Source: Bordetella parapertussis (GTDB lineage: Bacteria; Pseudomonadota; Gammaproteobacteria; Burkholderiales; SG8-39). From it: DNA of 64,000 bases. The stretch spans positions 4,597 to 68,596 of the forward strand of contig CAMAWC010000004.1 in the NCBI GenBank assembly GCA_945861875.1, given 5' to 3'. This document shows, in pieces, positions 1,482-25,799 of the stretch (the stretch's first letter is position 1; each line of letters begins with the position of its first letter). The notes below the pieces were generated by a model. That model saw nothing but the letters and a program-made list of their open reading frames with translations, was not told the DNA's origin and did no database searches. Position numbers and translations under genes: made by a program.

Positions 1482-1522
1482 TTGATCCAGGTCAACGGTC
1501 CGGCGGGGAAGCGTTGTAGCGT
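1482..1522 (+). promoter_or_regulatory. candidate FNR/CRP-family class II promoter of hemG
   Basis: Box TTGATCCAGGTCAA 1482-1495 matches TTGAT-N4-ATCAA at 9/10. The -10-like TAGCGT 1517-1522 starts 28.5 bp from the box centre. The box centre lies 108.5 bp upstream of the hemG ATG. Confidence 0.6.
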
Positions 1523-1596
1523 AGCGAGTGCGACGGTACGCGCAGCGTTGCCGCCGGCACAAACACGGCGGAGCGACACGCAAAGCGCGCTAAAGC

Positions 1597-2130
1597 ATGT
1601 CCAGAATACTCATTCTTTATTCGACCACCGACGGCCATACAGTGGAGATTTGCGAGCGGCTGCGGACGGTGATTGAGGCGCTCGGGCACACGGTAACGCT
1701 GGCCGGCTTTTCTTCCTTCCCCGGCGCCGAAATGGCGGGTTTTGAACGCATTGTGATCGGTGCGAGCATCCGTTACGGCAGGCACAGCCGGCAGTTGATT
1801 GAATTCATCAATCGCAACGCCGGCATCCTGAATGCCCGACCCGGTGCTTTTTTTTCAGTAAGCGTGGCCGCGCGCAAGCCCAAGAACAGCAAGCCCGGGA
1901 CAAATGCCTATATGCAGGCCTTTTTGCGCAAGGTGTCATGGCGGCCGGCGCAACTGGCTGTTTTTGCCGGCAAGATCGATTACCCGCGTTACGGTTTTTT
2001 TGACCGCCTGATGATCAGGCTGATCATGTTGGTCACCGGCGGGCCGACCGATCCGCAGGCGGTGGTGGACTTTACCGACTGGAATCAGGTTGAGGCTTTT
2101 GGCCGGACCATCGGTGGCGCTGAGGGCTAG
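1597..2130 (+). CDS. hemG: quinone-dependent protoporphyrinogen IX dehydrogenase HemG (flavodoxin-like)
   Basis: 177 aa. Flavodoxin N-terminus MSRILILYSTTDGHT. Near-colinear with E. coli HemG as I recall it (VIGASIRYG, YPRYGFFDRLMIRLIM, TDWNQV). Confidence 0.9.
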   Translation: MSRILILYSTTDGHTVEICERLRTVIEALGHTVTLAGFSSFPGAEMAGFERIVIGASIRYGRHSRQLIEFINRNAGILNARPGAFFSVSVAARKPKNSKPGTNAYMQAFLRKVSWRPAQLAVFAGKIDYPRYGFFDRLMIRLIMLVTGGPTDPQAVVDFTDWNQVEAFGRTIGGAEG

Positions 2131-2142
2131 CGCCGGTCAGGC

Positions 2143-2183
2143 TTGATCTGCATCAAAACCGGTATTGGCCGGCTTGCTAGGGT
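2143..2183 (+). promoter_or_regulatory. candidate FNR/CRP-family class II promoter of maeA
   Basis: Box TTGATCTGCATCAA 2143-2156 is a perfect 10/10 consensus. The -10-like TAGGGT 2178-2183 starts 28.5 bp from the box centre. The centre lies 105.5 bp upstream of ATG 2255. Confidence 0.7.
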
Positions 2184-2254
2184 AGGCGGCACCGTCTGTG
2201 CGTATGAACGAGGGGAGTATTCGCGCCGATCCGTATCTGTGTAGAGGAGGAAGC

Positions 2255-3907
2255 ATGAATAGCAAGCCCGGGAAGCGTGACGCTTCCGCTATGCCGCGCG
2301 GCACCGATTTGCTGCACGATCCGCTGCTCAACAAGGGCACGGCGTTTACCGCGGCCGAGCGTGACGCGCTGGGTTTGCGCGGCCTGTTGCCGCCGCATAT
2401 TCATACCCAGGAAGAGCAGATGGGCCGCATTCTGATGAACCTGCGGCAAATGCCCGATCCGCTCGACCGCTTTATAGCCCTTAACGCGCTGCACGATCGT
2501 AACGAGGCGCTGTTCTTTCGCACCATCTGCGAAAACGTCGATGAAATACAGCCGCTCATTTACACGCCCACCGTCGGGCTTGCGTGCCAGCGCTTCGGGC
2601 AGATTTTTCAGCGCCCGCGCGGCATGTTCATCAGCGCCGCCGACCGTGGCCGCATCAAGTCCATACTCGCCAACTGGCCCTACCAGGCCGGCATCATTGT
2701 CGTTACCGACGGTGAGCGCATTCTTGGCCTTGGCGACCAGGGCGCCAACGGCATGGGCATCCCGGTGGGCAAGCTCTCGCTTTATACGGCCTGTGCCGGC
2801 GTGAACCCGCGGTTGTGCCTGCCGGTGACCATCGATGTCGGTACCAATAATGAGACGCTGCTCAATGATCCTTATTACGTCGGCCTCAAGCAGCGGCGCA
2901 TTACCGGCGCCGCCTACGACGAGCTGATCGAGGAGTTTGTCACCGCCGCGAACGAGGTGTTTACCGGTGTGCTGATCCAGTTTGAGGACTTTGCCAACCA
3001 CAACGCTTTTCGCCTTCTGGCCAAATACCGCGACCGCATCTGCACCTTTAACGATGACATCCAGGGCACGGCGGCGGTGGTGCTCACCGGGCTTTTGTCG
3101 GCCTTGCGTATCACCGGCGGCAAATTGCAGGACCAGCGCCTGCTGTTTCTCGGCGCGGGTGAGGCGGCGACCGGCATTGCCGACTTGGTGGTCGCGGCCA
3201 TGGTCGCGCAAGGTGTCGCCGAGGGCGTGGCGCGGCAGTGCTGCTGGCTGGTCGATTCCAAGGGGCTGGTGGTCAAAAGCCGCGGCGATCTTGCCGCGCA
3301 AAAGAAACCCTACGCACATGAACATGCGCCTGTCGCCGAATTCCCGGCAGCGGTGCGCGCACTCAAACCGACGGCGATCATCGGTGTGGCCGCGGTGGGC
3401 GGCACCTTTACCAAGGAGGTGCTCGCCGACATGGCGCGGATCAATGCGCAACCCATCGTGTTCGCGCTGTCCAACCCGACGTCCAAGTCCGAATGCACGG
3501 CACAGCAGGCCTACGAGGGCACCGGCGGCAAGGCCTTGTTTGCCTGCGGCAGCCCCTTCGACCCGGTAACGCTGGCCGGGCGCACCTATGTGCCGCGCCA
3601 GGGCAACAACTCCTATATTTTCCCCGGCGTCGGCCTTGGCGCGATAGTCAGCCGCACGCGGCGCGTCACCGACGAGATGTTCCTTGCCGCAGCGCACACG
3701 CTGGCAGCGCAGGTGAGCGAAGCGGACCTGGCACAGGGCAGCCTGTACCCGGCGCTGGCGCGAATCCGCGAGGTGTCGGCGGCGATTGCCGCGTCGGTTG
3801 CGACGATTGCCTACGAGCGCGATCTGGCCGGCAAACCGCGTCCGGTGGACATCCAGGCCGACATCAAGTCGCACATGTACGACCCGCGCTATGAGAGTTA
3901 TGCCTAG
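2255..3907 (+). CDS. maeA: NAD-dependent malic enzyme
   Basis: ORF 2198-3907. ATG 2255 follows GGAGGA. Malic-enzyme N-terminus LHDPLLNKGTAFTAAERDALGLRGLLPP. Dinucleotide fold FLGAGEAATGIA. About 550 aa. Confidence 0.93.
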   Translation: MNSKPGKRDASAMPRGTDLLHDPLLNKGTAFTAAERDALGLRGLLPPHIHTQEEQMGRILMNLRQMPDPLDRFIALNALHDRNEALFFRTICENVDEIQPLIYTPTVGLACQRFGQIFQRPRGMFISAADRGRIKSILANWPYQAGIIVVTDGERILGLGDQGANGMGIPVGKLSLYTACAGVNPRLCLPVTIDVGTNNETLLNDPYYVGLKQRRITGAAYDELIEEFVTAANEVFTGVLIQFEDFANHNAFRLLAKYRDRICTFNDDIQGTAAVVLTGLLSALRITGGKLQDQRLLFLGAGEAATGIADLVVAAMVAQGVAEGVARQCCWLVDSKGLVVKSRGDLAAQKKPYAHEHAPVAEFPAAVRALKPTAIIGVAAVGGTFTKEVLADMARINAQPIVFALSNPTSKSECTAQQAYEGTGGKALFACGSPFDPVTLAGRTYVPRQGNNSYIFPGVGLGAIVSRTRRVTDEMFLAAAHTLAAQVSEADLAQGSLYPALARIREVSAAIAASVATIAYERDLAGKPRPVDIQADIKSHMYDPRYESYA

Positions 3908-3968
3908 AGTAGGATGTTGCCTGGAAGGGAAGAATATTTTTCAACGGAACTTCAACCAAGGAGCGCAT

Positions 3969-4256
3969 ATGAAAACCATAGCGATTGCGGCCGTCCTGGC
4001 CATTGGCGTTTTTGGAGCGGGGGCGGCGGGCGCATCCGAGGCGCTGGCCAAGAGCAGCGGCTGCCTCGGCTGCCACGCACTGGATACCACCAAGAAGGTC
4101 GGGCCGGGATTCAAGACGATAGCCACCGCAAACAAGGGCAAGGCCGATGCCGAAGCAACGATCAGCGCCAAGATCATCAGCGCCAAGGGGCACCCCAAGG
4201 TCAAGGCCGGTGATGACGACGTAAAGACCATGACAAAGTGGATTCTTACGCTGTAG
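3969..4256 (+). CDS. monohaem class I cytochrome c (c551/c552-like), periplasmic
   Basis: ATG 3969 follows AAGGAG. Signal peptide MKTIAIAAVLAIGVFGAGAAGA. Single CLGCH motif followed by KKVGPGFK. 95 aa. Confidence 0.85.
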   Translation: MKTIAIAAVLAIGVFGAGAAGASEALAKSSGCLGCHALDTTKKVGPGFKTIATANKGKADAEATISAKIISAKGHPKVKAGDDDVKTMTKWILTL

Positions 4257-4264
4257 CGATGTTT

Positions 4265-4305
4265 CCCCGCGGCCTGCACCCGGCGCAGGCCGCGGGGGTC
4301 TTTCG
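4265..4305 (+). terminator. rho-independent terminator after the cytochrome c gene
   Basis: 13-bp perfect stem ccccgcggcctgc / gcaggccgcgggg with a 7-nt loop, followed by gtctttcg. Confidence 0.6.
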
Positions 4306-4332
4306 ACAGTAATTTCATCGCGTGAGCAATTG

Positions 4333-4373
4333 TTGATCTGGCGCAAACAGGCCGCTGCGCGCTGGACTACCCT
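4333..4373 (+). promoter_or_regulatory. candidate FNR/Dnr-type class II promoter of the multihaem c::b gene
   Basis: Box TTGATCTGGCGCAA 4333-4346 (8/10) is the identical 14-mer to 19029-19042. The -10-like TACCCT 4368-4373 starts 28.5 bp from the box centre. Confidence 0.5.
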
Positions 4374-4508
4374 GCAGTCAGTTGTTCTGCGACCGGTATT
4401 GGTGTGGTGAAACTCGTGCTTGCCAGCTGGCAAGGTGATGCCAGCATCCTATAAAAAAGGGCGGCGTTTGCAGTGCTCCGTTTTCAATGTTGCAGGGGAA
4501 AAGACAAC

Positions 4509-6299
4509 ATGATGCGAATTCCGGGATCGGCTTTATTGAGGGTGACAGCTTGCCTGCTTGCCATAAGCAGTCTCGGTGCGCTGTCTGCGGGGGCCGCCGA
4601 TGCGCCGGCTGGCGCCGTCGCCCCAGTCGCAAGCACAGCGGCAACCGACAAACCGGATAACGACACCTGTCTCGCGTGTCACGGCAATGCGGGCTTCTCC
4701 GCGCCGGGAGCCGGCGGGAAGGAGCGCCCGCTGCATGTGGCGCAGGATAAATTCGGCGCCAGCTCGCACGGGAAGTTGGAGTGTGTTTCCTGCCATACCG
4801 CCATCACCGATGTTCCGCACAAGAATATCCCGGCCGAGGGCAGCCCGGCCCGCGCCGCACAGCGCAAGGGCATTCCCGAGCTTTGCGGCACCTGCCACGC
4901 CAAGCAGCGTGACGAATATGCGACTTCGGTGCACGGGCGCGAGGCCCTGGAAAAAGGCAACCCCGCAGCGGCGGTCTGCTCCGACTGCCACAAGCCCCAT
5001 GCGGTGCAGGACCCGACGGGCGATGTCGCGCGGCTGACCATCACCAAGAGCTGCGGCAGTTGCCACAAGGACATGCTCAGGACTTATACCGAAACCTATC
5101 ACGGCCAGATCAACGCCCTCGGTTACGCCAATACGGCCAAGTGCTTTGACTGCCATGGCAGTCACGGCATCCAGCGCGTCGGCGATCCTGCGTCGTCGGT
5201 GCACCGCAAGAACCGCCTCGAAACCTGCCAGAAGTGCCACATCAACGCCAGCGAGGGCTTTGCCACCTTTGCACCGCACGGCGACGCGCGCGACTTTGCC
5301 CGTTACCCGATGATCTGGTTGGCGCAAAAAATGATGGTCGGCCTGCTGGTCGGCACCTTTGCCTTCTTCTGGCTGCATACGGCCATGTGGTTTTACCGCG
5401 AATACAAGGAGCGCAGCGAGCGCAAATCGCGGCCGCAGGTGCTGGCTAGCGCCTTGCCAACCGGGACGACAGGCAAGCATTTCCAGCGCTTTAGCGCGAC
5501 CTGGCGCGTGGCCCATCTGAGCTTCGCGCTAAGCCTGATGGTGCTGACCCTCACCGGCATGCCGGTGTTTTATCCGGAAAGCAGCTGGGCACCGGCGGTG
5601 ATGAAGCTGCTGGGTGGCCCGCAGACGGCGGCGATTATCCACCGCGTGGCTGCCGTGGTCTTTGCCGGGGTGTTTTTCTGGCACCTGGGCTATGTGGCGC
5701 TGCGCCTGGCGCGCAACTGGAAAAACTTTCGTATTTTCGGCTCCGATTCGTTGATACCCGGCCTGCAGGACCTCAAGGACATTATTGCGATGTTCACTTG
5801 GTTCATCGGCAAGGGCACGCGGCCGATATTCGACCGCTGGACCTACTGGGAGAAGTTCGACTACTGGGCGCCGTTCTGGGGTGTGACCATCATCGGCGTG
5901 AGCGGCCTGATGATGTGGCTGCCCAACCTGACGGCTTCCTTCCTGCCTGGCTGGGTGTTCAACATCGCCGCGATCTTCCATGGCGAGGAGGCCTTCCTCG
6001 CGGTGGTGTTCCTGTTCACCGTGCACTTTTTCAACAACCACTTCCGGCCGGACAAGTTTCCGCTTGATATCGTCATGTTCACCGGCACCATGACGCTGGA
6101 GGCCTTCCGCCACGAGCACGGCGTGCAGTACCAGCGACTGCTCGATTCGGGGGAACTGGAGAAGCACCTCGTCGATGCGCCGTCCCAACCGATGACTCTG
6201 GGGGCGAAGATCCTGGGCACCGTGCTGATCATCGTCGGCCTGACCTTGCTGGTGTTCGTGCTGGCCGGGTTCCTGCAGGGTTTTTCGGGAGGACACTGA
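4509..6299 (+). CDS. heptahaem cytochrome c fused to a polytopic dihaem-b-like membrane domain (CbcL-like quinol/quinone oxidoreductase candidate)
   Basis: ORF 4473-6299, with ATG 4509 the likely start (MMRIPGS..., signal peptide). Seven CXXCH motifs: CLACH, CVSCH, CGTCH, CSDCH, CGSCH, CFDCH, CQKCH. About 6 hydrophobic helices follow, two carrying His pairs 14-15 residues apart. Confidence 0.85.
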   Translation: MMRIPGSALLRVTACLLAISSLGALSAGAADAPAGAVAPVASTAATDKPDNDTCLACHGNAGFSAPGAGGKERPLHVAQDKFGASSHGKLECVSCHTAITDVPHKNIPAEGSPARAAQRKGIPELCGTCHAKQRDEYATSVHGREALEKGNPAAAVCSDCHKPHAVQDPTGDVARLTITKSCGSCHKDMLRTYTETYHGQINALGYANTAKCFDCHGSHGIQRVGDPASSVHRKNRLETCQKCHINASEGFATFAPHGDARDFARYPMIWLAQKMMVGLLVGTFAFFWLHTAMWFYREYKERSERKSRPQVLASALPTGTTGKHFQRFSATWRVAHLSFALSLMVLTLTGMPVFYPESSWAPAVMKLLGGPQTAAIIHRVAAVVFAGVFFWHLGYVALRLARNWKNFRIFGSDSLIPGLQDLKDIIAMFTWFIGKGTRPIFDRWTYWEKFDYWAPFWGVTIIGVSGLMMWLPNLTASFLPGWVFNIAAIFHGEEAFLAVVFLFTVHFFNNHFRPDKFPLDIVMFTGTMTLEAFRHEHGVQYQRLLDSGELEKHLVDAPSQPMTLGAKILGTVLIIVGLTLLVFVLAGFLQGFSGGH

Positions 6300-6303
6300 C
6301 GGC

Positions 6304-6344
6304 TTGATCCATGTCAAGACGCGCGGCGCGTGGCGGTGTATTTG
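6304..6344 (+). promoter_or_regulatory. candidate FNR/CRP-family class II promoter of the c5-OFOR-frd operon
   Basis: Box TTGATCCATGTCAA 6304-6317 (9/10) is identical to the rquA box. The weaker -10-like TATTTG 6339-6344 starts 28.5 bp from the box centre. The box begins 5 bp after the upstream stop codon. Confidence 0.55.
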
Positions 6345-6384
6345 TAGAGCGTGTTGTTAGAGCGCAAACAAAGGAGGAATGATC

Positions 6385-7044
6385 ATGAGTGACAAGATGC
6401 CCGGCGTATGGCGGCAGGTGGCGGTGGTGGCGATGCTTGCCTTTGCCTTGCCCCTTGGGGCACAACAGGCGGCGGCACAGCAAGCGGCGGCCCCCAAGGC
6501 CGGCGATCGCAGCGGCAAGCAGGTGGTCGATGCCACCTGCGCCTCCTGTCACGCCAGCGGCGCCAACGGCGCGCCGAAGATCGGTGACGTCAAGGCCTGG
6601 AGCGCACGCTCCAAGCAAGGCCTGTCCAGCCTGACCAAGGAAGCCATCGGCGGTATTCGCAAAATGCCCGGGCACGGCGGCGACGCGACCCTGACCGACC
6701 TGGAAATCGGCCGTGCCGTGACCTACATGGTCAACCAGTCCGGCGGCAAGTGGACCGAACCTGCGAGTCCCAAGGACATGGCAAAAGAGCGCAGCGGCAG
6801 GCAGATTGTTGAAATGCAGTGCTACCGCTGCCATGAAAACGGCACGGGCGGGGCGCCGAAAATCGGCGACCGGCAAGCCTGGATACCGCGGGTCAGCCAG
6901 GGCTTGGATAACGTCACGCGCTCGGCCATACGCGGGCACGGCGGCATGCCGGCGCGCGGCGGCATGGCCGATGTCAGCGACACCGAGTTGCGCAACGCGA
7001 TTGCCTACATGCTCAATTACGGCACCGGCGCGGAAAAGAAATGA
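6385..7044 (+). CDS. dihaem cytochrome c, two c5-type domains
   Basis: ATG 6385 lies 6 nt after AGGAGGA. Signal peptide present. Two CXXCH motifs (CASCH, CYRCH), each followed by G..GAPKIGD..AW, which is typical of cytochrome c5. Confidence 0.85.
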   Translation: MSDKMPGVWRQVAVVAMLAFALPLGAQQAAAQQAAAPKAGDRSGKQVVDATCASCHASGANGAPKIGDVKAWSARSKQGLSSLTKEAIGGIRKMPGHGGDATLTDLEIGRAVTYMVNQSGGKWTEPASPKDMAKERSGRQIVEMQCYRCHENGTGGAPKIGDRQAWIPRVSQGLDNVTRSAIRGHGGMPARGGMADVSDTELRNAIAYMLNYGTGAEKK

Positions 7045-7081
7045 GTCTCACGGCCATGGCCTAACAGGCTGGGGGGCAACC

Positions 7082-7666
7082 ATGTTCCAGGTGCGCATTC
7101 ACGGCAGGGGCGGTCAGGGCGTGGTCTCGGCCGCGGAAATGCTCTCGGTGGCCGCATTCGACGAAGGGCGTTTCGCCCAGGCTTTCCCCAGCTTCGGTTC
7201 TGAGCGCATGGGTGCGCCGGTGATGGCCTTTTGCCGCATCGACAGGCGCGAGATCCGCTCGCGCGAACCGGTGATGCAGCCCGATGCGCTGATCATCCAG
7301 GACCCGACCCTGCTGCACCAGGTGGACTTGTTCAGCGGGCTCGCCGCCGGCGGCTTCATCCTCATTAATTCCAGGCGCAGTGCCGAGGAACTGGGCATAG
7401 CCGAACTGGCGCACGGCATCGGACACGACCACCTGTGTACGGTGCCGGCGAGTGATTTAGCCCTCAAGCACACCGGCAGGTCGATGCCCAATGCCGCGCT
7501 GCTGGGCGGGTTTGCCGCCATCACCGGGCAGTTGCACCTCGATTCGGTGACCAAGGCGATACGCGAAAAGTTTCCCGGCAAGGTGGGCGAGTCCAACGTG
7601 GCCGCCGCCGAGGCCGCCTACGAGCACGTCATGAAGGAGCGGCAATCGCCGGCTACCCATGCTTAA
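7082..7666 (+). CDS. 2-oxoacid:ferredoxin oxidoreductase, gamma subunit
   Basis: MFQVRIHGRGGQGVVSAAEMLSVAAF...FPSFGSERMGAP is the characteristic POR/KOR gamma N-terminus. 194 aa. Confidence 0.9.
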   Translation: MFQVRIHGRGGQGVVSAAEMLSVAAFDEGRFAQAFPSFGSERMGAPVMAFCRIDRREIRSREPVMQPDALIIQDPTLLHQVDLFSGLAAGGFILINSRRSAEELGIAELAHGIGHDHLCTVPASDLALKHTGRSMPNAALLGGFAAITGQLHLDSVTKAIREKFPGKVGESNVAAAEAAYEHVMKERQSPATHA

Positions 7667-8912: not shown

Positions 8913-8923
8913 CGGGGGACATC

Positions 8924-17001: not shown

Positions 17002-17051
17002 AACACATAAAACGCGGTTCACAGTAGCCAGTTTTCCAAAAGGAGATAAGC

Positions 17052-18871: not shown

Positions 18872-18932
18872 GCAGCCCCCCTTTTTTGTTTGCTTTGCGC
18901 AGTATCGGTTTGGGTCGAACCTGCACGAGTAT

Positions 18933-18974: not shown

Positions 18975-19028
18975 TCCGCTGCCGCGTACAAGAGGGAATT
19001 CGTGATTTCTGGCGGGAGTGCCGCCGGC

Positions 19029-19069
19029 TTGATCTGGCGCAATCTGGCGCAATGCCGGCGGCGTAGCGT
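19029..19069 (+). promoter_or_regulatory. candidate FNR/Dnr-type class II promoter of the bifunctional kinase gene
   Basis: Box TTGATCTGGCGCAA 19029-19042 is identical to 4333-4346. The -10-like TAGCGT 19064-19069 starts 28.5 bp from the box centre. The box overlaps the tandem 10-bp repeat atctggcgca x2 (19032-19051). Confidence 0.5.
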
Positions 19070-19096
19070 AACAGCGGGTCATTCGAGGATTGCTCC

Positions 19097-20737
19097 GTGT
19101 CTGCGACTGATAAACATGCGGCGCCGCTGCGGCCCACGCCGGGGGACGGCGAGGCGGCGTACACGCGTCTGATCGCGGCATTGCGCGAACCGTCGCGCCA
19201 TGCCGGACTGGTCGGGCCGGTGGAATTGCTCGAGACACATTGCTCCAGCGTCCTGCTCGTCGGCGGTTTTGCGCTCAAGCTGAAGAAGCCGGTCAACCTG
19301 GGTTTCCTGGATTTCAGCTCGTTGGAGGCGCGCCGCTTTTATTGCAACGAGGAGTTGCGCCTGAACCGGCGCACCGCGCCGCAACTGTATCTTGATGTCG
19401 TTCCCATCGGCGGTAGTGAAGCGGAGCCGGTCATTGGCGCAGAACCCGCCATCGAGTATGCAGTCAGGATGCGGCGCTTTGCGCAGGATGAGTTGCTCTA
19501 TCGCATCGCGCGGGACGGGGTGCTCACGCCGCAGCATGTCGACGGGCTGGCGGCTGCGGTGGCGCAATTTCACGCCGTGGCAGCGGTTGACCCGGAGCGG
19601 TCTTACGGTTCGGCGGCGCAGATCAGGGAGGCGATGCGCGCCAATTGCGCCGAACTCGCGGCGCTGGTGCAAGGACCGCGTGAGCAGGGGCTGCTGGGTG
19701 CGCTGGCTGACTGGTCGGCCGCGCAGTGTGCGGCACTGGCACCACAGTTCGACGCGCGCCGTGACGCCGGCATGGTGCGCGAGTGCCACGGCGACCTGCA
19801 CCTGGGCAATATCGCCTTGATTGAAGACCGGCCGACGCTGTTTGATTGTATCGAGTTCAATGCGGCATTCCGCAACATCGATGTGATCAGCGACAGCGCC
19901 TTCCTGACTATGGACCTCATTTACCACGGTCTCGCGCCGCTGGCGTTTCGTTTCATCAACGCCTATCTTGAGCGAAGCGGTGACTACGCGGCGATGGCCG
20001 TGCTGCGTTTTTACCTTGTGCAGCGCGCACTGATCCGCGCAAAAGTGGCGCGAATCCGCGCCTTGCAACCGGGTATCACCGTCGAACAGAGGGGCGCCGC
20101 AGATAGCTCGTTCTGCGGCCACCTGCTTCTGGCGCGGCGCCTGGCACGCCGCGGGCGCGCTGCGCTGATTGTGATGCACGGGCTGTCCGGCTCGGGCAAG
20201 AGCAGCATCGCCCAGGTCTTGCTCGAGGCGCTGGGTGCGGTGAGGCTGCGCTCGGATGTGGAGCGCAAGCGCCTGTTTGGACTGGAGGCGGTGGGGCGCA
20301 CGGGCGCCACGCCGGACGGCGGAATCTATTCGACAGAGGCCGGCGCACGCACCTACGCGCGCCTGGCGGAAATCGCCGGCAGCCTGCTCGCCGCGGGCTA
20401 TCCGGTCATTGTCGACGCCGCATGCCTGCAGCGCGACCAGCGCGAATTGCTGTGCCGCGTCGCCGGGGAGCAGGGCCTGCCCTTTGCGATTGTTTCGTGC
20501 GAGGCCGCATTGCCGGTATTGCGCGAGCGGGTCGCACGGCGGGAGCAGCAGGGTGCTGATGCGTCCGATGCGGACTTGGCAATCCTCGAACGGCAACGTC
20601 GCACATTGCAGCCGCTGGGCGCCGATGAAATGGTGCACGTCATCCGGATTGCCACCGCTGTCGATGGCGCGGGCGGGCAGGGCGTCGCCACCGCGCTGGC
20701 GCGGCGTCTCGGCCTGGTCAGATACCGCAACGCATAG
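19097..20737 (+). CDS. bifunctional phosphotransferase (APH-like)/P-loop ATP-binding protein
   Basis: GTG start, 546 aa. N-terminal kinase-like domain (HGDLHLGNI). C-terminal P-loop GLSGSGKSS. Confidence 0.8.
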   Translation: MSATDKHAAPLRPTPGDGEAAYTRLIAALREPSRHAGLVGPVELLETHCSSVLLVGGFALKLKKPVNLGFLDFSSLEARRFYCNEELRLNRRTAPQLYLDVVPIGGSEAEPVIGAEPAIEYAVRMRRFAQDELLYRIARDGVLTPQHVDGLAAAVAQFHAVAAVDPERSYGSAAQIREAMRANCAELAALVQGPREQGLLGALADWSAAQCAALAPQFDARRDAGMVRECHGDLHLGNIALIEDRPTLFDCIEFNAAFRNIDVISDSAFLTMDLIYHGLAPLAFRFINAYLERSGDYAAMAVLRFYLVQRALIRAKVARIRALQPGITVEQRGAADSSFCGHLLLARRLARRGRAALIVMHGLSGSGKSSIAQVLLEALGAVRLRSDVERKRLFGLEAVGRTGATPDGGIYSTEAGARTYARLAEIAGSLLAAGYPVIVDAACLQRDQRELLCRVAGEQGLPFAIVSCEAALPVLRERVARREQQGADASDADLAILERQRRTLQPLGADEMVHVIRIATAVDGAGGQGVATALARRLGLVRYRNA

Positions 20738-20769
20738 TTCGTCGGCATGGCGCCGGACGGGGTGATTGA

Positions 20770-20802
20770 CTGGAAACGCAGGCGGGACACGGCTTTCCAG
20801 CC
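20770..20802. repeat. REP-like hairpin between convergent genes
   Basis: ctggaaa-N17-tttccag forms a 7-bp stem. It contains the 12-mer ggctttccagcc (20791-20802) shared with the hairpins at 1410 and 25198. Confidence 0.4.
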
Positions 20803-20812
20803 GGTCACCCGG

Positions 20813-22126
20813 TCAGGACGCGGTCCCGGCCATGCTGCGGAGCTTGGCGCGCACCAGGCTGATGTGGCTGCGCAGGTGATAAAGATAATCAGTGTAGGCG
20901 AGCGGGGTGGGGATGTGGATGACGCTTTGCTCGATAACGTCGAGTCGCTGCTGCAAGGCCTTGATGTCGGCCGCGTCGTGCGCCGATTCCAGGTCCCCTT
21001 CAAGCACCTTGAGCTTGCCGTACCAGCGGTAAATGCGCGACTTGATGCGCCAGGAGTAGACGACGGGCGCGAGCTTTACCAGCGGGACAAGCACCACCAG
21101 CAGCGGGATCAGCATGACGAACAAGCGGTCGAACAGCACGGCCATCCAGAAGGGCAGGTGGCGCTGCAGGAAGGGCGGACCCTGCTTGATGTATCGCCGG
21201 GCGTCGAGGCTTTGCGCGATATCGAGGTTTGCGGAAGACGGGAATTCCCCGGTCTTGTGCAGCATGCCGGCGTCGCTATGCACCTCGGTGGCCGCCTGCA
21301 GCAACAAGGACAGCAGCGCCGGGTGCAGGTCGTCGCGTACCACCAGGTTGGCGGTCGGGGCGATGAGGTGGACATCGCGCGGTGGCAGGTCATCAATGAG
21401 GTCAATCCCGCCCTTGGGCAGTACGACATGCGACAGGAAGGGCAGATAGCGGGTGTAGGCCTCGGCGTGGCTGAAGTTCATCAGTTGGATCGACCTCGCG
21501 TGCATCATTTTTCTGACTGTCGGCGATTCCGGGGCGCCGATGATCATGGCGACGTCGATGCTGCCCTTGATGAGGGCATCGGCGGCGTCGCCGGCGCCGA
21601 GCGGGAGAAAAGTGGTGTTGGTGTCATCCAGTCCGGCCAGTTTGAGTGCCTGCAGCGCCAGCGGCCGGGTGCCGCTACCTTCGGGACCGACGGCAATCTT
21701 CTTGCCGCGAAACGAACGCAGGCGGTCGGCCTCCGGCCCGTTGCGGTAAAACACCCAGAGTGGCTCGTAGTACAGGCTGGCAAGGCTCATCAGGTTGCCG
21801 CTGTCCTCCGATTTGGCGATGCCGCCTTGTACGAATCCGACGGAGATACCCGATGTGTCGTCCTTCAGGCGTTTAAGGTTGTCGACCGAACCGGCCGAGG
21901 GCCTTATTTCCACCTCGATGCCTTCGCGCGCGAGGATATCGCGGTACTGCAGGGCGAAGTTTTCGTAAGCGCCGCCTTCGGCGCCGCTGGTCATGATGAC
22001 TTTGTGCGGCGGCGCCGGCTGGACATACTGGTAGGCGATCCAGCCGGTGGCGACAAGAATGGCGAGGATCGGGAACAGCGTGCCCCAGAAATCGCGGGCA
22101 AGGATGGATTGGACTATTTTGGGCAT
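20813..22126 (-). CDS. membrane-anchored TAXI-family TRAP solute-binding protein
   Basis: ORF 20813-22366, trimmed to ATG 22126 (MPKIVQSIL...). N-terminal TM helix. TAXI core (MTSGAEGGAYENFA, IRPSAGSVDNL, VGFVQGG). C-terminal TM helices plus a charged tail. Confidence 0.8.
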   Translation of the reverse strand: MPKIVQSILARDFWGTLFPILAILVATGWIAYQYVQPAPPHKVIMTSGAEGGAYENFALQYRDILAREGIEVEIRPSAGSVDNLKRLKDDTSGISVGFVQGGIAKSEDSGNLMSLASLYYEPLWVFYRNGPEADRLRSFRGKKIAVGPEGSGTRPLALQALKLAGLDDTNTTFLPLGAGDAADALIKGSIDVAMIIGAPESPTVRKMMHARSIQLMNFSHAEAYTRYLPFLSHVVLPKGGIDLIDDLPPRDVHLIAPTANLVVRDDLHPALLSLLLQAATEVHSDAGMLHKTGEFPSSANLDIAQSLDARRYIKQGPPFLQRHLPFWMAVLFDRLFVMLIPLLVVLVPLVKLAPVVYSWRIKSRIYRWYGKLKVLEGDLESAHDAADIKALQQRLDVIEQSVIHIPTPLAYTDYLYHLRSHISLVRAKLRSMAGTAS

Positions 22127-22173
22127 GGCGGCGGGGTATTCAAGGCAGTGTACCAACTGTGACGGGCGGGGTG

Positions 22174-22932
22174 TTAGGTCGGCGTGCGCGCAAGGGGATC
22201 CTGACGGTAAAACGCGGCCAGTTCGCGATATATGGCGGGAAACTCGGCAACAAGGCCCGGCGCATCGGTGAAGAACGCCTCGCTCGCCACGGCGAAGAAT
22301 TCCGCCGGATGCTCGGCCGCATAGGGATCCATACGCGTATGCGCGCCGCGCCCGACCGCACCGCAAAAGCGCGCGAAGGCCGACTCGAAGGCGAGTTCCC
22401 AGCGCTCGCGGTCCATGCCGGCGTGCGGCGCCGGAAAACCGTCATCGTTGCCGCGCAGCATGTGAATCTTGTGGGCGAACTCGTGTATGACGACGTTATA
22501 ACCGGGCTCGCTGAGGCTGGCGTCCTGCCAGGACAGTATCACCGGGCCGTCCGGCCAGGCTTCGCCGGAGAGTTCGTCGTCGAACTCGTGCACCACGCCG
22601 GCCTCGTCAACGATTTCCCGCGCCACCCTGAACTCACCCGGATAGACGATGACGCCGACCCAGCCTTCGTAACATTCGAGGCCGAGGTTAAGCACCGGCA
22701 GGCAGGCCTGGACGGCGATTGCGACCCGCGCTTCGTTCGAGAGGACCAGGCCGGCGGCGCCGTGCAATTGTTTCTGGTCAAGGAAGGCGATAACCATTTC
22801 GCGCAGGCGCAGCAAATCGGGCGGGTTGAGCGCGGTGATGAAGGCATAGGGCGCAATGGCGCGCCGCCACAGCGACTCGTCAAGCTCGCTTTGCTTGCGT
22901 CGACGTTGCTGCAGGTTACCGAACCAGCCCAT
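22174..22932 (-). CDS. mtfA: M90-family zinc metallopeptidase MtfA
   Basis: 252 aa. HEFAHK zinc motif in the context NVVIHEFAHKIHML. EFFAVASEAFF block typical of MtfA. Confidence 0.85.
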   Translation of the reverse strand: MGWFGNLQQRRRKQSELDESLWRRAIAPYAFITALNPPDLLRLREMVIAFLDQKQLHGAAGLVLSNEARVAIAVQACLPVLNLGLECYEGWVGVIVYPGEFRVAREIVDEAGVVHEFDDELSGEAWPDGPVILSWQDASLSEPGYNVVIHEFAHKIHMLRGNDDGFPAPHAGMDRERWELAFESAFARFCGAVGRGAHTRMDPYAAEHPAEFFAVASEAFFTDAPGLVAEFPAIYRELAAFYRQDPLARTPT

Positions 22933-22945
22933 GTCAGCGCGCGGC

Positions 22946-24064
22946 TCAGGCGACCATTGCCCGCGTCTTGATGGCTTCGTTGACGCGCGGCATGACCTGG
23001 GTGGCCATCAGTTCCATGGATCTCCTTGCCAGCACCGGGTCGACCCAGTCCATCCCGGCGTAGACAATTTCGCCAAAGTCGCCGGCCTGCTCGCGCAATG
23101 CGAGGATGCCGTCCACCACTTTGTTTACGCTGCCCGAGATCACCAGTTCGTCGCACAGGCGGTCGACTGTGACGGCGCTGTCGTCTTCGTCGGCGTGTTT
23201 TTTGAATATGACGTGGCGCTTGGCCATCATCATTTTGGTGCGCAGCTGCTGGTAGTAATAGCGATAGGGATTGTCCGGTGTCTTGTTGCCATAGGCGGCG
23301 GCAACCTTGTCATCGTCGGCGACAAAAATGGTGCGCGCGACGCGCCAGTCGGCGGGGGCGGCGACCTTGCCCGCTTTTGTCTTGCCTTGCGCATAGTTGG
23401 CCCAGTGCGAGGGCAGCCAGTGCGGCAGCAGGAAGTTGGCCGACATCGGGTGAAAGTCGCGCTCGCCCATGGCGATCACGCCCTTGGAATGCGGCGCCAC
23501 GACGGTGCCGACAATTTCCGGGCGTGGTTTTTGGTAGGGTTTGTACATGATGCCGCGGCCGATATCGAGTTTTTGCGTTTTTGCCGTCGAGACCTTGAAG
23601 CGGTTGTCGGGGAAGTCGATGTCATAGGGCGGGTCGCGCTCCCAGATGGCGAGGATCACGTCGATGGCTTCGGCGAACAGCTTGTTGCGCTCCTCCTGCG
23701 CCAGGCCAAGTCCAAGAGCCTCGGCATCGGAGGACAGCGCGCCCGGGCTGATGCCGAATATGAAGCGGCCCTTGGCAAGATGGTCGAACATCGCCGCGTG
23801 CGCCGCGACCAGGGTGGGGTGGGTGTGTGACAGGTTGGAGGTGCCGGTGCCGAGCAGGATGGTCTTGGTGTCGTGGATCAGCGTGGCGAGGAAGATGAAG
23901 CTGTTGGTGACGTTCTCGGCGCGGTCGGTAAGATGCTCGCCGACAAAGGCATCATGAAAACCCAGTTTGTCGGCGAGGATGATGGCCTCGCGGTCCTCCT
24001 GCAGCGTGACGATCGGGTCGCGATCGAGCGGATGGAGCGGCATGGTGAAATAGCCGAGTCGCAT
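22946..24064 (-). CDS. LLM-class (luciferase-like) flavin-dependent oxidoreductase
   Basis: 372 aa. MRLGYFTMPLHPL...AFVGEHLTD and the TIM-barrel LLM pattern. Confidence 0.85.
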   Translation of the reverse strand: MRLGYFTMPLHPLDRDPIVTLQEDREAIILADKLGFHDAFVGEHLTDRAENVTNSFIFLATLIHDTKTILLGTGTSNLSHTHPTLVAAHAAMFDHLAKGRFIFGISPGALSSDAEALGLGLAQEERNKLFAEAIDVILAIWERDPPYDIDFPDNRFKVSTAKTQKLDIGRGIMYKPYQKPRPEIVGTVVAPHSKGVIAMGERDFHPMSANFLLPHWLPSHWANYAQGKTKAGKVAAPADWRVARTIFVADDDKVAAAYGNKTPDNPYRYYYQQLRTKMMMAKRHVIFKKHADEDDSAVTVDRLCDELVISGSVNKVVDGILALREQAGDFGEIVYAGMDWVDPVLARRSMELMATQVMPRVNEAIKTRAMVA

Positions 24065-24101
24065 GTTGTGTTCCTTGATTGCGTGAGCGATTGTCGGGAA
24101 G

Positions 24102-25070
24102 TTATTGCGCTTCTATGCCGGCGGTCTTGACGTATTCCTTCCAGCGCTCGATTTCCTGCGCGACAAACCGGCGGTAGTCTTCGCGTGACATGGCGCGCGT
24201 TTCCATTCCCAGTTGGTCGAGTTTTTGTTTCACGCCCGGATCGGCGAGGGCCTTGCTTACCCAGGCGTGCAGCGCTTCGACGATTTCCGGCGGCGTACGC
24301 GCCGGGGCGGCAAGGCCCAAATAAGCCTGCAGTTCATAACCCGGGTAGGTTTCGGCGATGGCCGGAACGGTGGGCCAGGGCTTGTGGCGTGTCGCGCCGG
24401 TGACGCCAAGCGGGATTACCTTGCCGCCTTCGATATGGGCCGATCCCGAGGGGTATTCGAGGAACACCACCTGGATTTGCTTGCCCATCAGGTCGGTGAC
24501 GGCATTGCCTATGGTCTTGTAGGACGCCCCGGTGAGTTGCGCGCCGGTTTTGGCGCGGAACAGTTCGGCCGACATTTGCGATGCCGAGTTGTAGTGGCCG
24601 AAAAACACCTTGCCCGGATTGGCCTTGGAATAACTGACCAGTTCGGCGATGGAATTAATGCCGCTGCCCGGCGGTACCACGGCGACCGATCCAAAGGTGC
24701 CGAACAGCGCGATGTTGTCAAAATCCCTGACCGGATCGTAGGGAACCTTCTTGTACAGGCTCAGATTGGCCGCATGGGTGGTGTTGGTGGTGAGGATGAG
24801 GGTGTATCCGTCGGCCGGGGCGTTCTTTGCCGCCTCGGTGCCGATGATGCCGTTGGCGCCGGGTTTGTTCTCGATGATGACCGGCTGTTTGGTCTGTGCT
24901 TCGAGGTATTGCCCAAAGGTGCGCGCGGTCAGGTCGCCGGAACCTCCCGGACCAAAGGGCACGATGATGCGTATGGGCTTGTTCGGGTAGCCCTGGGCGT
25001 GTGCCAGTCCTGCCATCAACATGCCGGTCAACAGGGCGTGGCGCATCAGGATCAACAGGCGGCATTGCAT
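24102..25070 (-). CDS. Bug/TctC-family periplasmic substrate-binding protein
   Basis: ORF trimmed to ATG 25070 (GGAG lies 8 nt upstream). Signal peptide followed by YPNKPIRIIVPFGPGGSGD. Confidence 0.85.
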   Translation of the reverse strand: MQCRLLILMRHALLTGMLMAGLAHAQGYPNKPIRIIVPFGPGGSGDLTARTFGQYLEAQTKQPVIIENKPGANGIIGTEAAKNAPADGYTLILTTNTTHAANLSLYKKVPYDPVRDFDNIALFGTFGSVAVVPPGSGINSIAELVSYSKANPGKVFFGHYNSASQMSAELFRAKTGAQLTGASYKTIGNAVTDLMGKQIQVVFLEYPSGSAHIEGGKVIPLGVTGATRHKPWPTVPAIAETYPGYELQAYLGLAAPARTPPEIVEALHAWVSKALADPGVKQKLDQLGMETRAMSREDYRRFVAQEIERWKEYVKTAGIEAQ

Positions 25071-25197
25071 TGTGGGGCTCCGGGAGAAGTTTTTTGCGAA
25101 CGAGAGCATAGCATCGGCGACCTTGATTTCGCTGATGAAACACTGCCAGGATAGGGTATTCAAGCACGCCCCGGAACGACCATATTGCAACCAGGCA

Positions 25198-25240
25198 AAT
25201 CGGCTGGAAAGCCACGACTGGCGCGGCTTTCCAGTCGATT
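25198..25240. repeat. REP-like hairpin (GGCTGGAAAGCC core)
   Basis: aatcggctggaaagcc-N11-ggctttccagtcgatt forms a 16-bp stem with one mismatch, in the divergent intergenic region. Confidence 0.6.
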
Positions 25241-25298
25241 GCCATGGTGAAGAGGCGGTTTCGACCGGAATTCGGTTCGCAAATAGTCGCGAAAGTGC

Positions 25299-25327
25299 TT
25301 GACCCCATTGGATTAACTGCGTACAAG
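25299..25327 (+). promoter_or_regulatory. candidate sigma70 promoter of cspA
   Basis: TTGACC 25299-25304, 17-bp spacer, TACAAG 25322-25327. This would give a leader of about 145 nt, as in other cspA genes. Confidence 0.35.
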
Positions 25328-25479
25328 TCGGGTGCAGGATTTTCTTTTGCAGTGCTCGCTGGTCCGTTGTAACCGCTCAGGCGGTGCCTCCAAGGTCGTC
25401 GTGTCTCTTCTCTCGAATTTCTCGCATTTTTTTGCATCGGGCGTTTTGCCCAATTTAAATTTTTAGGAAGAACAGATAC

Positions 25480-25686
25480 ATGGCTACCGGTACAGTTAAG
25501 TGGTTCAATGACGCCAAAGGTTTTGGCTTTATCACCCCCGAAGATGGCAGCAAAGACCTTTTTGCCCACTTCTCGTCCATCAGCGGCGACGGGTTCAAAT
25601 CCCTCAAAGAAGGCCAGAAGGTCTCCTTCGAAGTAACAGCCGGCCCCAAGGGTGACCAGGCAGTGGCCATCAAGGCGATCGACTGA
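25480..25686 (+). CDS. cspA: cold-shock protein, CspA family
   Basis: 68 aa. [23 protein letters not shown]...LFAHFS contains the RNP1/RNP2 motifs. Confidence 0.96.
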
Positions 25687-25705
25687 TCGTTTTGCGTGTG
25701 CAGTA

Positions 25706-25733
25706 AAAAGCTCGGGAAACCGGGCTTTTTTTT
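25706..25733 (+). terminator. rho-independent terminator of cspA
   Basis: 7-bp stem agctcgg/ccgggct (one G-U pair) with a GAAA tetraloop, followed by T8. Confidence 0.8.
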
Positions 25734-25758
25734 CGCCTTTTGCCCATGGGGCTCTGAT

Positions 25759-25799
25759 TTGACCTGAATCAAATGCTCCCGTGAGGCGGGTTCTATGCT
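25759..25799 (+). promoter_or_regulatory. candidate FNR/CRP-family class II promoter of the extradiol dioxygenase gene
   Basis: Box TTGACCTGAATCAA 25759-25772 (9/10). The -10-like TATGCT 25794-25799 starts 28.5 bp from the box centre. The centre lies 105.5 bp upstream of ATG 25871. Confidence 0.55.

Follow-up and report, generated by a model that had tools for sequence, protein, structure and literature searches.

The 64,000-nucleotide stretch of DNA analysed here (the window), from an uncultured wastewater betaproteobacterium, raises the question of what acts on eight 14-bp boxes resembling TTGAT-N4-ATCAA that precede transcription units within it. All eight 14-mers were found in place, with the positions and sequences that an earlier, sequence-only reading had assigned to them. 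In the 64 kb we identified nine matches with at most one mismatch, compared with 1.21 ± 1.0 (maximum 4) in 100 dinucleotide shuffles, which bears out the excess over chance that this reading had proposed. Six of the nine are intergenic and three are coding (26234, 40574 and 51130), of which only the first had been reported; the probability that at least six of nine would fall in the non-coding DNA (≤14%) is 4e-4. Matches with two mismatches numbered 14 in the window and, once genes missed by a crude gene caller had been added, only those at 4333 and 19029 (both 8/10) were intergenic. Two-mismatch boxes as a class were not enriched upstream of rquA relative to elsewhere (79 loci), so the case for boxes 4333 and 19029 is made by their geometry and conservation. 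All 16 half-sites start with TTG and 14 of them with TTGA; judged by sequence, they are of the FNR type (TTGA) and not of the CRP type (GTGA). The boxes are very probably sites for a dimeric CRP/FNR-family activator with FNR-type specificity, located at class II promoters.

The position of the boxes relative to a −10-like hexamer is nearly invariant. Six of the eight promoters have a TAnnnT hexamer on the side facing the gene, its first base exactly 28.5 bp from the centre of the box. These promoters, all on the plus strand and all with a 21-bp spacer, are those of hemG (1482–1522; box TTGATCCAGGTCAA at 1482–1495, TAGCGT at 1517–1522, box centre 108.5 bp from the hemG ATG), maeA (2143–2183; perfect box TTGATCTGCATCAA, TAGGGT), the c::b cytochrome (4333–4373; 8/10 box TTGATCTGGCGCAA, TACCCT), tctBAC (14938–14978; TTGACGCAGATCAA, TATTCT), the APH/AAA kinase (19029–19069; 8/10 box TTGATCTGGCGCAA, TAGCGT) and the extradiol dioxygenase (25759–25799; TTGACCTGAATCAA, TATGCT). 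The right half-site of the kinase box lies within a 10-bp tandem duplication (two copies of TCTGGCGCAA, 19033–19052). Local intergenic DNA has TAnnnT at a frequency of 0.0082 per position, which gives a probability of 9e-12 for this hexamer at one offset in at least six of eight promoters, or ~2e-10 when corrected for 21 offsets. On the opposite side of the box, TAnnnT occurs at 28.5 bp at box 4333 alone (TACTGT). The promoter of the long operon running from a di-haem cytochrome to frd (6304–6344, plus strand; TTGATCCATGTCAA, 21-bp spacer) carries TATTTG at 28.5 bp, lacking the final T, whereas in the minus-strand rquA promoter (18933–18974; box TTGACATGGATCAA at 18961–18974) a 22-bp spacer leads to TACCTT (18933–18938) at 29.5 bp. 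The offsets originally proposed (28.5 bp in seven promoters, 29.5 bp for rquA) therefore hold, but the hexamer of the seventh is not TAnnnT. The rquA promoter also contains an alternative hexamer, TATACT (18928–18933); this is the one most like the −10 sequences of its relatives and it sits at 34.5 bp, not 28.5 bp.

A generic −35/−10 scan found a canonical sigma-70 promoter at none of the eight boxes, as expected for activator-dependent promoters. The same observations bear on whether the boxes could instead be operators at which a CRP/FNR-family protein represses transcription. Repression of some promoters by FNR-family proteins is established. Predicted negatively regulated groups have also been reported in Accumulibacter (PMC6446978). 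At this locus, the −10 hexamer follows each of the eight boxes at the distance typical of class II activation, no box extends over the −10 or the start site, and these promoters have no −35 element to drive activator-independent transcription; we consider repression very unlikely here. The activating arrangement, modelled on E. coli FNR class II promoters, would leave 21 bp between the box and a downstream sigma-70 −10 hexamer and so centre the box at about −40.5 to −41.5 relative to the predicted transcription start, where it would replace the −35 element.

Seven of the eight boxes are localised to an accessory block of ~19.4 kb that extends from hemG to the kinase gene (1419–20812), and all seven transcription units of this block begin with a box. 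A syntenic relative (P0001 contig) shares the genes flanking the block on either side but has none of the block itself, an abhydrolase gene directly adjoining an NMT1 gene. Box-headed units thus account for 7/7 inside the block versus 1/~30 outside (Fisher P = 8e-7, with the outside count estimated). Rather than defining a regulon, as had been suggested, the boxes form a local cluster belonging to one.

Comparison with Pfam and NCBIfam models essentially supported the gene labels of the sequence-only reading, except that its "c5" is a di-haem c4-like cytochrome; its start codons for maeA, the c::b cytochrome and the di-haem cytochrome move downstream to 2255, 4509 and 6385, respectively. The first gene, hemG (1597–2130, plus strand), encodes an oxygen-independent (menaquinone-dependent) protoporphyrinogen IX dehydrogenase (Pfam Flavodoxin_5; 193.5 bits to NCBIfam equivalog NF008316, whose cutoff is 142). 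The next plus-strand unit (2255–4256) comprises maeA, encoding NAD-malic enzyme (2255–3907), and a small mono-haem cytochrome c with a CLGCH motif (3969–4256) that the original gene list omitted and whose ORF is kept in the sister strain L091. A G+C-rich hairpin with a 13-bp stem follows this unit (4265–4297; dG −41.4, z −4.9); terminators immediately upstream of the c::b and dioxygenase boxes mark unit boundaries. The c::b gene (4509–6299, plus strand) encodes a fusion of a hepta-haem cytochrome c (seven CXXCH motifs) with an FdnI-type di-haem b membrane domain (~5 hydrophobic segments), in which residues 335–521 weakly match formate dehydrogenase gamma/cytochrome b556 models. We take this fusion to resemble Geobacter CbcL and to be a putative quinol:periplasm electron module.

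The long operon (6385–14914, plus strand; intergenic gaps ≤53 bp) encodes the di-haem c4-like cytochrome c (6385–7044), the gamma, alpha and beta subunits of a 2-oxoacid:ferredoxin oxidoreductase (7082–9925), a GltD-like NAD(P)H flavoprotein with a C-terminal PorD-type ferredoxin domain (9922–11559) and frdABCD (11613–14914); within it, no box precedes frdA. It is followed by tctB-tctA-tctC, encoding a tripartite tricarboxylate transporter (14997–18029, plus strand; Pfam TctB, TctA, TctC), and by rquA on the minus strand (18161–18871), whose product is a rhodoquinone biosynthesis enzyme (NCBIfam equivalog NF038261; score 300.8 bits, cutoff 175). The gene divergent from rquA, an arrangement shared by three species, encodes an APH-like phosphotransferase fused to an AAA_33 kinase domain (19097–20737, plus strand; Pfam) without a match among NCBIfam models.

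The carbon-handling genes in this block (malic enzyme, TctBAC) might suggest that these sites are bound by a cAMP-CRP-type protein or another carbon-sensing member of the family, in which case the block would respond to carbon supply and not to redox state or oxygen; many CRP/FNR subgroups have unknown signals (PMC9603854; PMC8510549). Against this, the half-sites read TTGA and not GTGA, anaerobic respiration and quinone functions dominate the gene content, and E. coli CRP as query found no relative in the window, making carbon control highly improbable.

Phylogenetic footprinting, which the sequence-only reading had put forward, supported the boxes of rquA, frd, c::b, maeA, the di-haem cytochrome and the kinase, failed for hemG and was weak for the dioxygenase; the tctB box was left out, as the relatives lack tctBAC at the same position. 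For rquA, a box with at most one mismatch lies within ~300 bp upstream in 11 of the 15 closest loci (chance 0.018 per locus; P = 7e-17), and nine of these 11 show nATACT or a close variant at 28.5 bp when read by eye. Across 79 loci, perfect boxes before rquA are enriched 23-fold over background and one-mismatch boxes 13-fold, although most loci beyond the closest clade lack one. As a negative control for this enrichment, distant hemG loci (all but L091) carry an upstream box in only 1/79. In L091, the closest relative, an identical box precedes maeA with an identical TAGGGT at 28.5 bp, and the di-haem cytochrome promoter retains both its box and TATTTG. The hemG box has no counterpart there and its promoter segment (1419–1596, 178 bp) no homologue; the c::b box is also absent from L091, where segment 4300–4464 is non-homologous. 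Orthologues of c::b in four other relatives (L020, L023, L024, L025) all have perfect boxes with CATGAT at 28.5 bp. A perfect or near-perfect box stands before frdA itself in seven relatives; the five checked all have TAAGGT, TAAGCT or TAACCT at 28.5 bp. Kinase orthologues divergent from rquA in L011 and L012 follow boxes with one and two mismatches, respectively, and hexamers (TAAGTT and TAGCCT) exactly at 28.5 bp. The 21-bp spacer also recurs before a two-component system in relatives (2/2).

This recurrence also bears on whether the boxes lack any regulatory role and are chance matches or copies of a dispersed, REP- or MITE-like repeat. Such an origin might be read into the two pairs of identical 14-mers, which were correctly reported and are real, and into two-mismatch boxes being no commoner upstream of rquA than elsewhere. 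The flanks of the identical 14-mers are unrelated, and only 1/28 promoter pairs exceeds 40% flank identity (49%), which indicates that no repeat element is involved. Nine matches were reached in none of the 100 shuffles, the geometry has P ~1e-11, and boxes before orthologues in other species keep the 21-bp spacing over diverged spacer sequence. Together, shuffles, geometry, unrelated flanks and recurrence in other species effectively refute this origin.

For the favoured activator reading, we infer that the active form of the protein would bind the box, contact RNA polymerase and turn the unit on. Units activated together would be hemG; maeA with the small cytochrome c; the hepta-haem c::b cytochrome; the operon of di-haem cytochrome c, 2-oxoacid oxidoreductase, NAD(P)H flavoprotein and frdABCD; tctBAC; rquA; the APH/AAA_33 kinase; and the extradiol dioxygenase. 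Their combined effect would be to provide fumarate reduction dependent on rhodoquinone, together with a reductive C4/2-oxoacid metabolism linked to ferredoxin. In this reading, a well-known type of switch is wired to a partly new gene set. The signal is most probably falling oxygen, and the presence of oxygen-independent HemG, Frd and RquA fits a low-oxygen programme. Genes expressed at least 3-fold more strongly under anaerobic conditions in Rhodospirillum rubrum include rquA (PMC6529003). Either an FNR/Anr orthologue encoded elsewhere would sense oxygen directly, or the signal would arrive through an Anr-to-Dnr-type cascade.

Neither the window nor the 7.5 kb upstream of it contained a CRP/FNR gene. 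The one regulator seen in this gene block is that of L091, a Dnr-like CRP/FNR-family protein whose gene follows a perfect box of its own, again with a 21-bp spacer. It lacks the N-terminal cluster of FNR Fe-S cysteines, and among solved structures it is closest to P. aeruginosa Dnr (3DKW, E = 5e-24), with FNR scoring far lower. CRP/FNR-family genes that encode an E..SR recognition helix, each with a perfect box of its own, occur in the L091 block and beside rquA in L022 and L077. These genes raise the possibility, tentative in our view, that the same sites and geometry serve a cysteine-less Dnr/FtrB-like paralogue whose direct signal is not oxygen but perhaps NO, haem or redox state, and which may act below an oxygen sensor in a cascade. 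Several homologues are named "dissimilatory nitrate respiration regulator" by JGI, and variants 99% and 93% identical occur in ERZ27-accession samples, like the window's own contigs. At the equivalent position of the window the regulator gene is missing, denitrification genes are absent from the regulon, and the perfect box of the L091 gene fits upstream FNR/Anr control as well as autoregulation. In the alignment (residues counted by eye), the Dnr haem ligand His139 is replaced by Glu and His187 is kept, so NO sensing cannot be assumed for this protein.

The eighth box belongs to the extradiol (catechol 2,3-dioxygenase-like) dioxygenase gene (25871–26887, plus strand; Pfam Glyoxalase), which lies with its box outside the 19.4-kb block. 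The product scores 300.6 bits against TIGR03211, slightly under the cutoff of 320.2, and the box is directly 3′ of the intrinsic terminator of a cold-shock gene (25705–25733). Conservation is weak: the box is absent from L173 and L174, whereas L175–L177 have a two-mismatch box with TATCTT at 29.5 bp. As an oxygen-requiring enzyme, the dioxygenase is an odd member for an anaerobic regulon.

Searching the 64-kb window for TTGAT-N4-ATCAA with at most one mismatch identified nine sites; 100 dinucleotide-preserving shuffles yielded 1.21 ± 1.0 matches, and none of the 100 reached nine. Six of the nine correspond to boxes proposed in the sequence-only reading (at 1482, 2143, 6304, 14938, 18961 and 25759) and all six are intergenic (P = 4e-4 for six of nine in non-coding DNA, which makes up at most 14% of the window). 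The coding fraction of 0.86 is a lower bound because the GC3-based gene caller missed several genes (oforB, M90 and a 928-aa FimV-like ORF). Each of the other three matches (26234, 40574–40587 and 51130–51143) falls within a long ORF. The previously claimed bias of the boxes to non-coding DNA stands for the six intergenic sites, with three coding matches where only 26234 had been given. The two that were not in that list lie inside ORFs 39875–40975 and 50839–53625 and are most likely due to chance. Both the enrichment and the promoter-versus-coding test cover the window.

The two remaining proposed boxes, at 4333 and 19029, were identified as 8/10 matches sharing one 14-mer, TTGATCTGGCGCAA, so that all eight are present (one at 10/10, five at 9/10 and two at 8/10). 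They are the only intergenic sites among the 14 two-mismatch matches in the window, after addition of the genes missed by the caller. Upstream of rquA, two-mismatch boxes were not enriched across 79 loci (1.1-fold), and therefore counts alone cannot support the two 8/10 boxes. The right half of the box at 19029 is overlapped by a 10-bp tandem duplication (TCTGGCGCAA twice, 19033–19052), of which the first copy alone completes the box at the correct -10 distance. The half-sites of the eight boxes start with TTG in 16 of 16 cases and with TTGA in 14 of 16; the CRP-type start is GTGA. The inverted repeat, the TTGA half-sites and the over-representation in promoter regions identify the eight boxes as FNR-type sites.

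The distance between box and -10-like hexamer is also fixed, as the sequence-only reading had described. Each box was oriented towards its gene and the offset was measured from the box centre to the start of the hexamer. TAnnnT occurs at exactly 28.5 bp, corresponding to a 21-bp spacer, in six of the eight promoters (hemG, maeA, the c::b cytochrome, tctB, the kinase and the dioxygenase), and these six contain no other TAnnnT within 70 bp downstream of the box. Against a background of 0.0082 TAnnnT per position in local intergenic DNA, P = 9e-12 for at least six of eight at one offset, or about 2e-10 after correction for 21 offsets. The di-haem cytochrome promoter carries TATTTG at 28.5 bp and the rquA promoter TACCTT at 29.5 bp; the hexamer is thus placed 21 bp past the box in seven of eight promoters and 22 bp past it in one. 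With the hexamer position as proxy for the unmapped start, the box centre would lie at -40.5 to -41.5. On the gene-distal side of the boxes, TAnnnT at 28.5 bp was found for box 4333 only (TACTGT, minus strand, 4305–4311). A minus-strand gene for this second hexamer was rejected: the sole ORF there (3941–4318) is regarded as spurious because it lacks a Pfam match and overlaps, on the opposite strand, with the conserved cytochrome c gene.

A generic -35/-10 consensus scan of positions 1300–20900, a range that covers every box except 25759, detected no canonical promoter at these seven. This is a weak test, and its outcome is the one expected if the box replaces the -35 element. In the same scan neither promoters nor terminators exceeded chance, and it was used as weak support for the missing -35 element. 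The identical 14-mers might suggest copies of a repeat element; this is ruled out because the flanks of the eight promoters are unrelated to one another. Two boxes directly follow the end of a transcription unit. A 13-bp G+C-rich hairpin (4265–4297; dG -41 kcal/mol, z -4.9) closes the maeA-cytochrome c unit just before box 4333, and a classic intrinsic terminator closes the cold-shock gene just before box 25759.

Gene labels come from Pfam and NCBIfam matches and from the genes called on near-identical metagenome contigs; these confirmed the earlier assignments with small corrections and revealed one overlooked gene. On the plus strand lie hemG (1597–2130; equivalog, 193.5 bits versus a cutoff of 142) and the NAD-malic enzyme gene maeA (2255–3907). 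The overlooked gene (3969–4256, plus strand) encodes a 95-aa mono-haem cytochrome c with a CLGCH motif and a signal-peptide-like N-terminus; it lies between maeA and the c::b cytochrome gene and is kept in L091, a metagenome locus of a sister strain and the closest relative. Another ORF in this gap (3914–4213) was discarded as being in the wrong frame. The c::b cytochrome gene itself (4509–6299, plus) encodes a fusion of a cytochrome c with seven CXXCH motifs and an FdnI-type b-haem membrane domain, which we take to be CbcL-like. Further along the plus strand are genes for a di-haem cytochrome c (6385–7044), the gamma, alpha and beta subunits of a 2-oxoacid:ferredoxin oxidoreductase (7082–9925) and a GltD-like flavoprotein with a PorD-type ferredoxin tail (9922–11559), followed by frdABCD (11613–14914) and tctBAC (14997–18029). 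The rquA gene (18161–18871, minus; NCBIfam equivalog NF038261, 300.8 bits versus a cutoff of 175) is followed by a gene for an APH/AAA_33 fusion kinase (19097–20737, plus), an operon without a box (20813–25070, minus), the cold-shock gene (25480–25686, plus) and the extradiol dioxygenase gene (25871–26887, plus). In the window, the oxidoreductase and the GltD-like NAD(P)H flavoprotein (7082–11559) share one operon with frdABCD; an oxidoreductase and GltD-like flavoprotein with a C-terminal PorD ferredoxin domain are also found near rquA-frd in a Piscinibacter MAG (L048, 2545–7009).

Near-identical contigs of this uncultured betaproteobacterium were seen across many wastewater-type assemblies. 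Among species-representative genomes, the closest RquA proteins are 75% identical and belong to Betaproteobacteria, Usitatibacteraceae and Sterolibacteriaceae MAGs. Within about 300 bp upstream of rquA, 11 of the 15 closest loci carry a box with no more than one mismatch (P = 7e-17; chance per locus 0.018), and across 79 rquA loci perfect boxes were 23-fold and one-mismatch boxes 13-fold above the background of the same loci. The -10 hexamer of these relatives, by our own reading of the promoters, is nATACT at 28.5 bp. In the window, TATACT lies at 34.5 bp, 6 bp further from the box, and TACCTT at 29.5 bp (18928–18938, minus strand); it looks as if a small insertion created a replacement hexamer. 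Seven relatives carry a box some 85 bp upstream of frdA, perfect or nearly so, and in all five that were checked TAAGGT, TAAGCT or TAACCT lies at exactly 28.5 bp on the frdA side. The c::b cytochrome orthologue is preceded in four relatives (L020, L023, L024 and L025) by a perfect box, 21 unrelated bases and CATGAT. Because the same spacing recurs before orthologues in relatives, the 21-bp distance between box and -10 is a conserved trait of the promoters of this clade and not a coincidence of one genome. The c::b fusion gene adjoins frd-rquA in L013, L020, L023 and L024; its next neighbour in L023 and L024 is a HAMP histidine kinase gene with a box, followed in L023 by a sigma-54 activator gene.

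The divergent kinase-rquA pair is kept in two relatives (L011, 1104–2651; L012, 7850–9376), in which the box has TAAGTT or TAGCCT at 28.5 bp towards the kinase. An APH-like/AAA_33 kinase of unknown function thus stands divergent from rquA in three species, each time with its own class II-type promoter. UbiB is a kinase-like protein in ubiquinone synthesis, and by analogy this kinase may act with rhodoquinone synthesis or use.

Phylogenetic footprinting, which the sequence-only reading had put forward, accordingly supports the boxes of rquA, frdA, the c::b cytochrome and the kinase, to which L091 adds maeA and the di-haem cytochrome; hemG was not supported and the dioxygenase weakly. The L091 proteins are 94–99% identical to those of the window, and its maeA and di-haem cytochrome boxes are identical to the letter, as are the hexamers. 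The hemG and c::b promoter segments (window 1419–1596 and 4300–4464) have no homologue and no box in L091, and these two boxes are recent acquisitions in this lineage. Of the 80 metagenome loci used for hemG, L091 is the sole close one and the other 79 (at most 64% identity) are usable as a negative control only; one has a box upstream and 78 have none. Since tctBAC was not found at this position in any relative, the tctB box is supported by geometry only. Two loci with the dioxygenase (L173 and L174) have no box at up to two mismatches, and L175–L177, which represent one other lineage, carry a degenerate two-mismatch box with TATCTT at 29.5 bp.

The homologue closest to the dioxygenase (88% identity) lies on a contig where the flanking genes on both sides are the same, with the abhydrolase gene directly beside the NMT1 gene and everything from hemG to the kinase absent. 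Seven of the eight boxes fall in the missing segment, which corresponds to window positions 1419–20812 (about 19.4 kb), and all seven of its transcription units start with a box; outside it, the only box in the window is that of the dioxygenase promoter. Because this whole segment is missing from a syntenic relative, the anaerobic genes from hemG to the kinase form an accessory block.

A tblastn search of the window with E. coli FNR and CRP probes gave no CRP/FNR gene (best E = 0.15), nor was one found in the 7.5 kb that precede the window. L091 carries 4.8 kb of additional sequence between the abhydrolase gene and hemG (L091 3699–8498). This insert encodes a CRP/FNR-family regulator (3935–4576, minus strand; cNMP_binding and HTH_Crp_2 domains) and, divergent from it, a DmsE/MtrA-family deca-haem cytochrome (5081–6031) and an MtrB/PioB porin (5965–8406), with two perfect boxes, at L091 4695 and 4839, between the regulator gene and the cytochrome/porin genes. 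In another locus, L027, a box was found where the open frame of an MtrB/PioB porin gene begins. Within the block, the L091 regulator is the sole one detected. It lacks an N-terminal cysteine cluster and has an E..SR recognition helix (THEHFSRIL), the type expected with TTGA half-sites. Dnr-like, cysteine-less regulator genes stand behind a perfect box in L091, L178 and L179; in L022 a related gene adjoins rquA and in L077 one is found close to rquA, both with boxes of their own. Two contigs of 1.3 and 0.8 kb, which carry no linking context, encode proteins that match the L091 regulator at 99% and 93% identity; like the window's own contigs, they come from samples with ERZ27 accession numbers, and they have a perfect TTGATCCATATCAA 67–77 bp upstream of the gene and GAnAAT at 28.5 bp. 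From these gene neighbourhoods, a CRP/FNR-family member with fitting DNA specificity appears to travel with these genes.

The affinities of this regulator raise the possibility of an NO-responsive regulon of the Dnr/NnrR type. Among solved structures, that of P. aeruginosa Dnr is the closest to it (3DKW, E = 5e-24; FNR structures about 1e-6), several homologues are named "dissimilatory nitrate respiration regulator" by JGI, and His187 of Dnr is kept. His139, by manual count on the alignment, is matched by a glutamate, the NCBIfam FtrB, Fnr and FixK models all scored below their cutoffs, and no nir, nor or nos genes were found among the boxed units of the window. Given the replaced His139 and the lack of denitrification targets, this assignment was not supported. 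The candidate activators at the window boxes would be the Dnr-like protein or a classical four-cysteine FNR encoded elsewhere.

At E. coli FNR/CRP class II promoters the dimer sits near -41 over the -35 position and contacts RNA polymerase. We propose that in the window an activator dimer would likewise bind each box at about -41, overlapping the -35 position, and contact RNA polymerase, with transcription starting 6–8 bases past the hexamer and the boxed units activated together. Rhodoquinone serves fumarate respiration without oxygen in bacteria and some eukaryotes; RquA would supply it, FrdABCD would reduce fumarate and TctBAC would import C4 and tricarboxylates. MaeA would interconvert malate and pyruvate, and the oxidoreductase with its GltD-like subunit would link 2-oxoacids with ferredoxin and NAD(P)H. 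Electrons would pass between quinol and periplasm through the c::b, di-haem and mono-haem cytochromes, and HemG would allow haem synthesis to continue without oxygen. Extradiol dioxygenases require oxygen, and the membership of this gene would suit a programme that is hypoxic and not strictly anoxic. The signal is most likely a fall in oxygen, judging from the gene content and from Rhodospirillum rubrum, where rquA belongs to the genes with at least 3-fold higher expression under anaerobic conditions (PMC6529003).

The box system is real and well supported, and ordinary in mechanism; the principle is a textbook one and the gain lies in the content of the regulon. E. coli FNR class II sites lie at about -41.5, as at narG and dmsA, and frdABCD is a classic FNR target. 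The window shares with them the TTGAT-N4-ATCAA palindrome, the box in place of the -35 element, the set distance to the -10 and the fumarate reductase target. It differs in the distance of 28.5 bp between box centre and hexamer, which would place the centre at -40.5 to -41.5 according to where transcription starts. Unlike E. coli, the window encodes no such regulator, and its targets extend to rquA, the 2-oxoacid:ferredoxin oxidoreductase, the c::b multihaem cytochrome and hemG, none of which is, to our knowledge, an E. coli FNR target. In Pseudomonas aeruginosa, the oxygen-sensing Anr activates dnr via an Anr box and Dnr then uses near-identical boxes. The relatives resemble this cascade in having a Dnr-like gene behind a perfect box, with a consensus indistinguishable from FNR/Anr boxes, but differ in lacking denitrification targets, in the His139 not kept in the L091 regulator and in the absence of the regulator from the window.

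FNR regulons have been predicted in "Ca. Accumulibacter" (PMC6446978) and in Rhodocyclaceae/Nitrosomonas MAGs (PMC8510549), and in the accessible portions of these reports FNR-like motifs likewise precede respiratory genes in hosts under aerobic/anaerobic cycling. As described in those portions, the regulons centre on denitrification, cbb3 oxidase, hemN and pta, and neither rquA nor frd with the oxidoreductase is named among the targets, unlike in the window. FNR control has also been predicted across Pseudomonadota for ubiTUV, the oxygen-independent ubiquinone pathway (PMC11707229). The likeness lies in FNR-type boxes placed for activation before anaerobic quinone-biosynthesis genes; that study scanned ubiT, ubiU and ubiV, treated rquA phylogenetically only and gave no FNR sites for it. 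Operon linkage of rquA with complex II (frd/sdh) genes was proposed by Stairs et al. 2018 (PMC5953543), and rquA likewise stands beside frdABCD in the window and in most of 80 related loci. No promoter or regulator was described there, whereas in the window rquA and frd have separate, similarly built promoters. A full-text literature search found no published promoter, regulator or CRP/FNR box for bacterial rquA.

What the window adds is modest: rquA and neighbouring genes as targets, the wiring of a whole block, and a Dnr-like regulator tied to the block in sister strains. We predict control of rquA by an FNR-family activator placed at about -41, and co-regulation of rquA with frd, the ferredoxin-linked 2-oxoacid oxidoreductase, the quinol-linked multihaem cytochrome and oxygen-independent haem synthesis; both predictions are testable. 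Such co-regulation hints at joint gene function in an uncultured wastewater organism, as for the APH/AAA_33 kinase paired with rquA. With the whole programme on a block absent from a close relative, the regulatory wiring would move with the genes. We consider it possible, though rather unlikely, that the block is a transferable "hypoxia cassette" in which a single CRP/FNR-type activator controls all promoters and which, in some strains, includes a regulator of its own. If so, a sensor of a new subtype would jointly switch rhodoquinone synthesis and fumarate reduction, together with an MtrAB-like outer-membrane electron conduit in L091, and bacterial rquA would gain its first described regulatory circuit.

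Among non-coding features, no tRNA gene was found in the window. A SAM-II riboswitch (SAM_alpha, RF00521) was matched at 62978–63051 on the plus strand, with 36.6 bits versus a gathering cutoff of 36, at the 5' end of the last plus-strand ORF (63000–63830).
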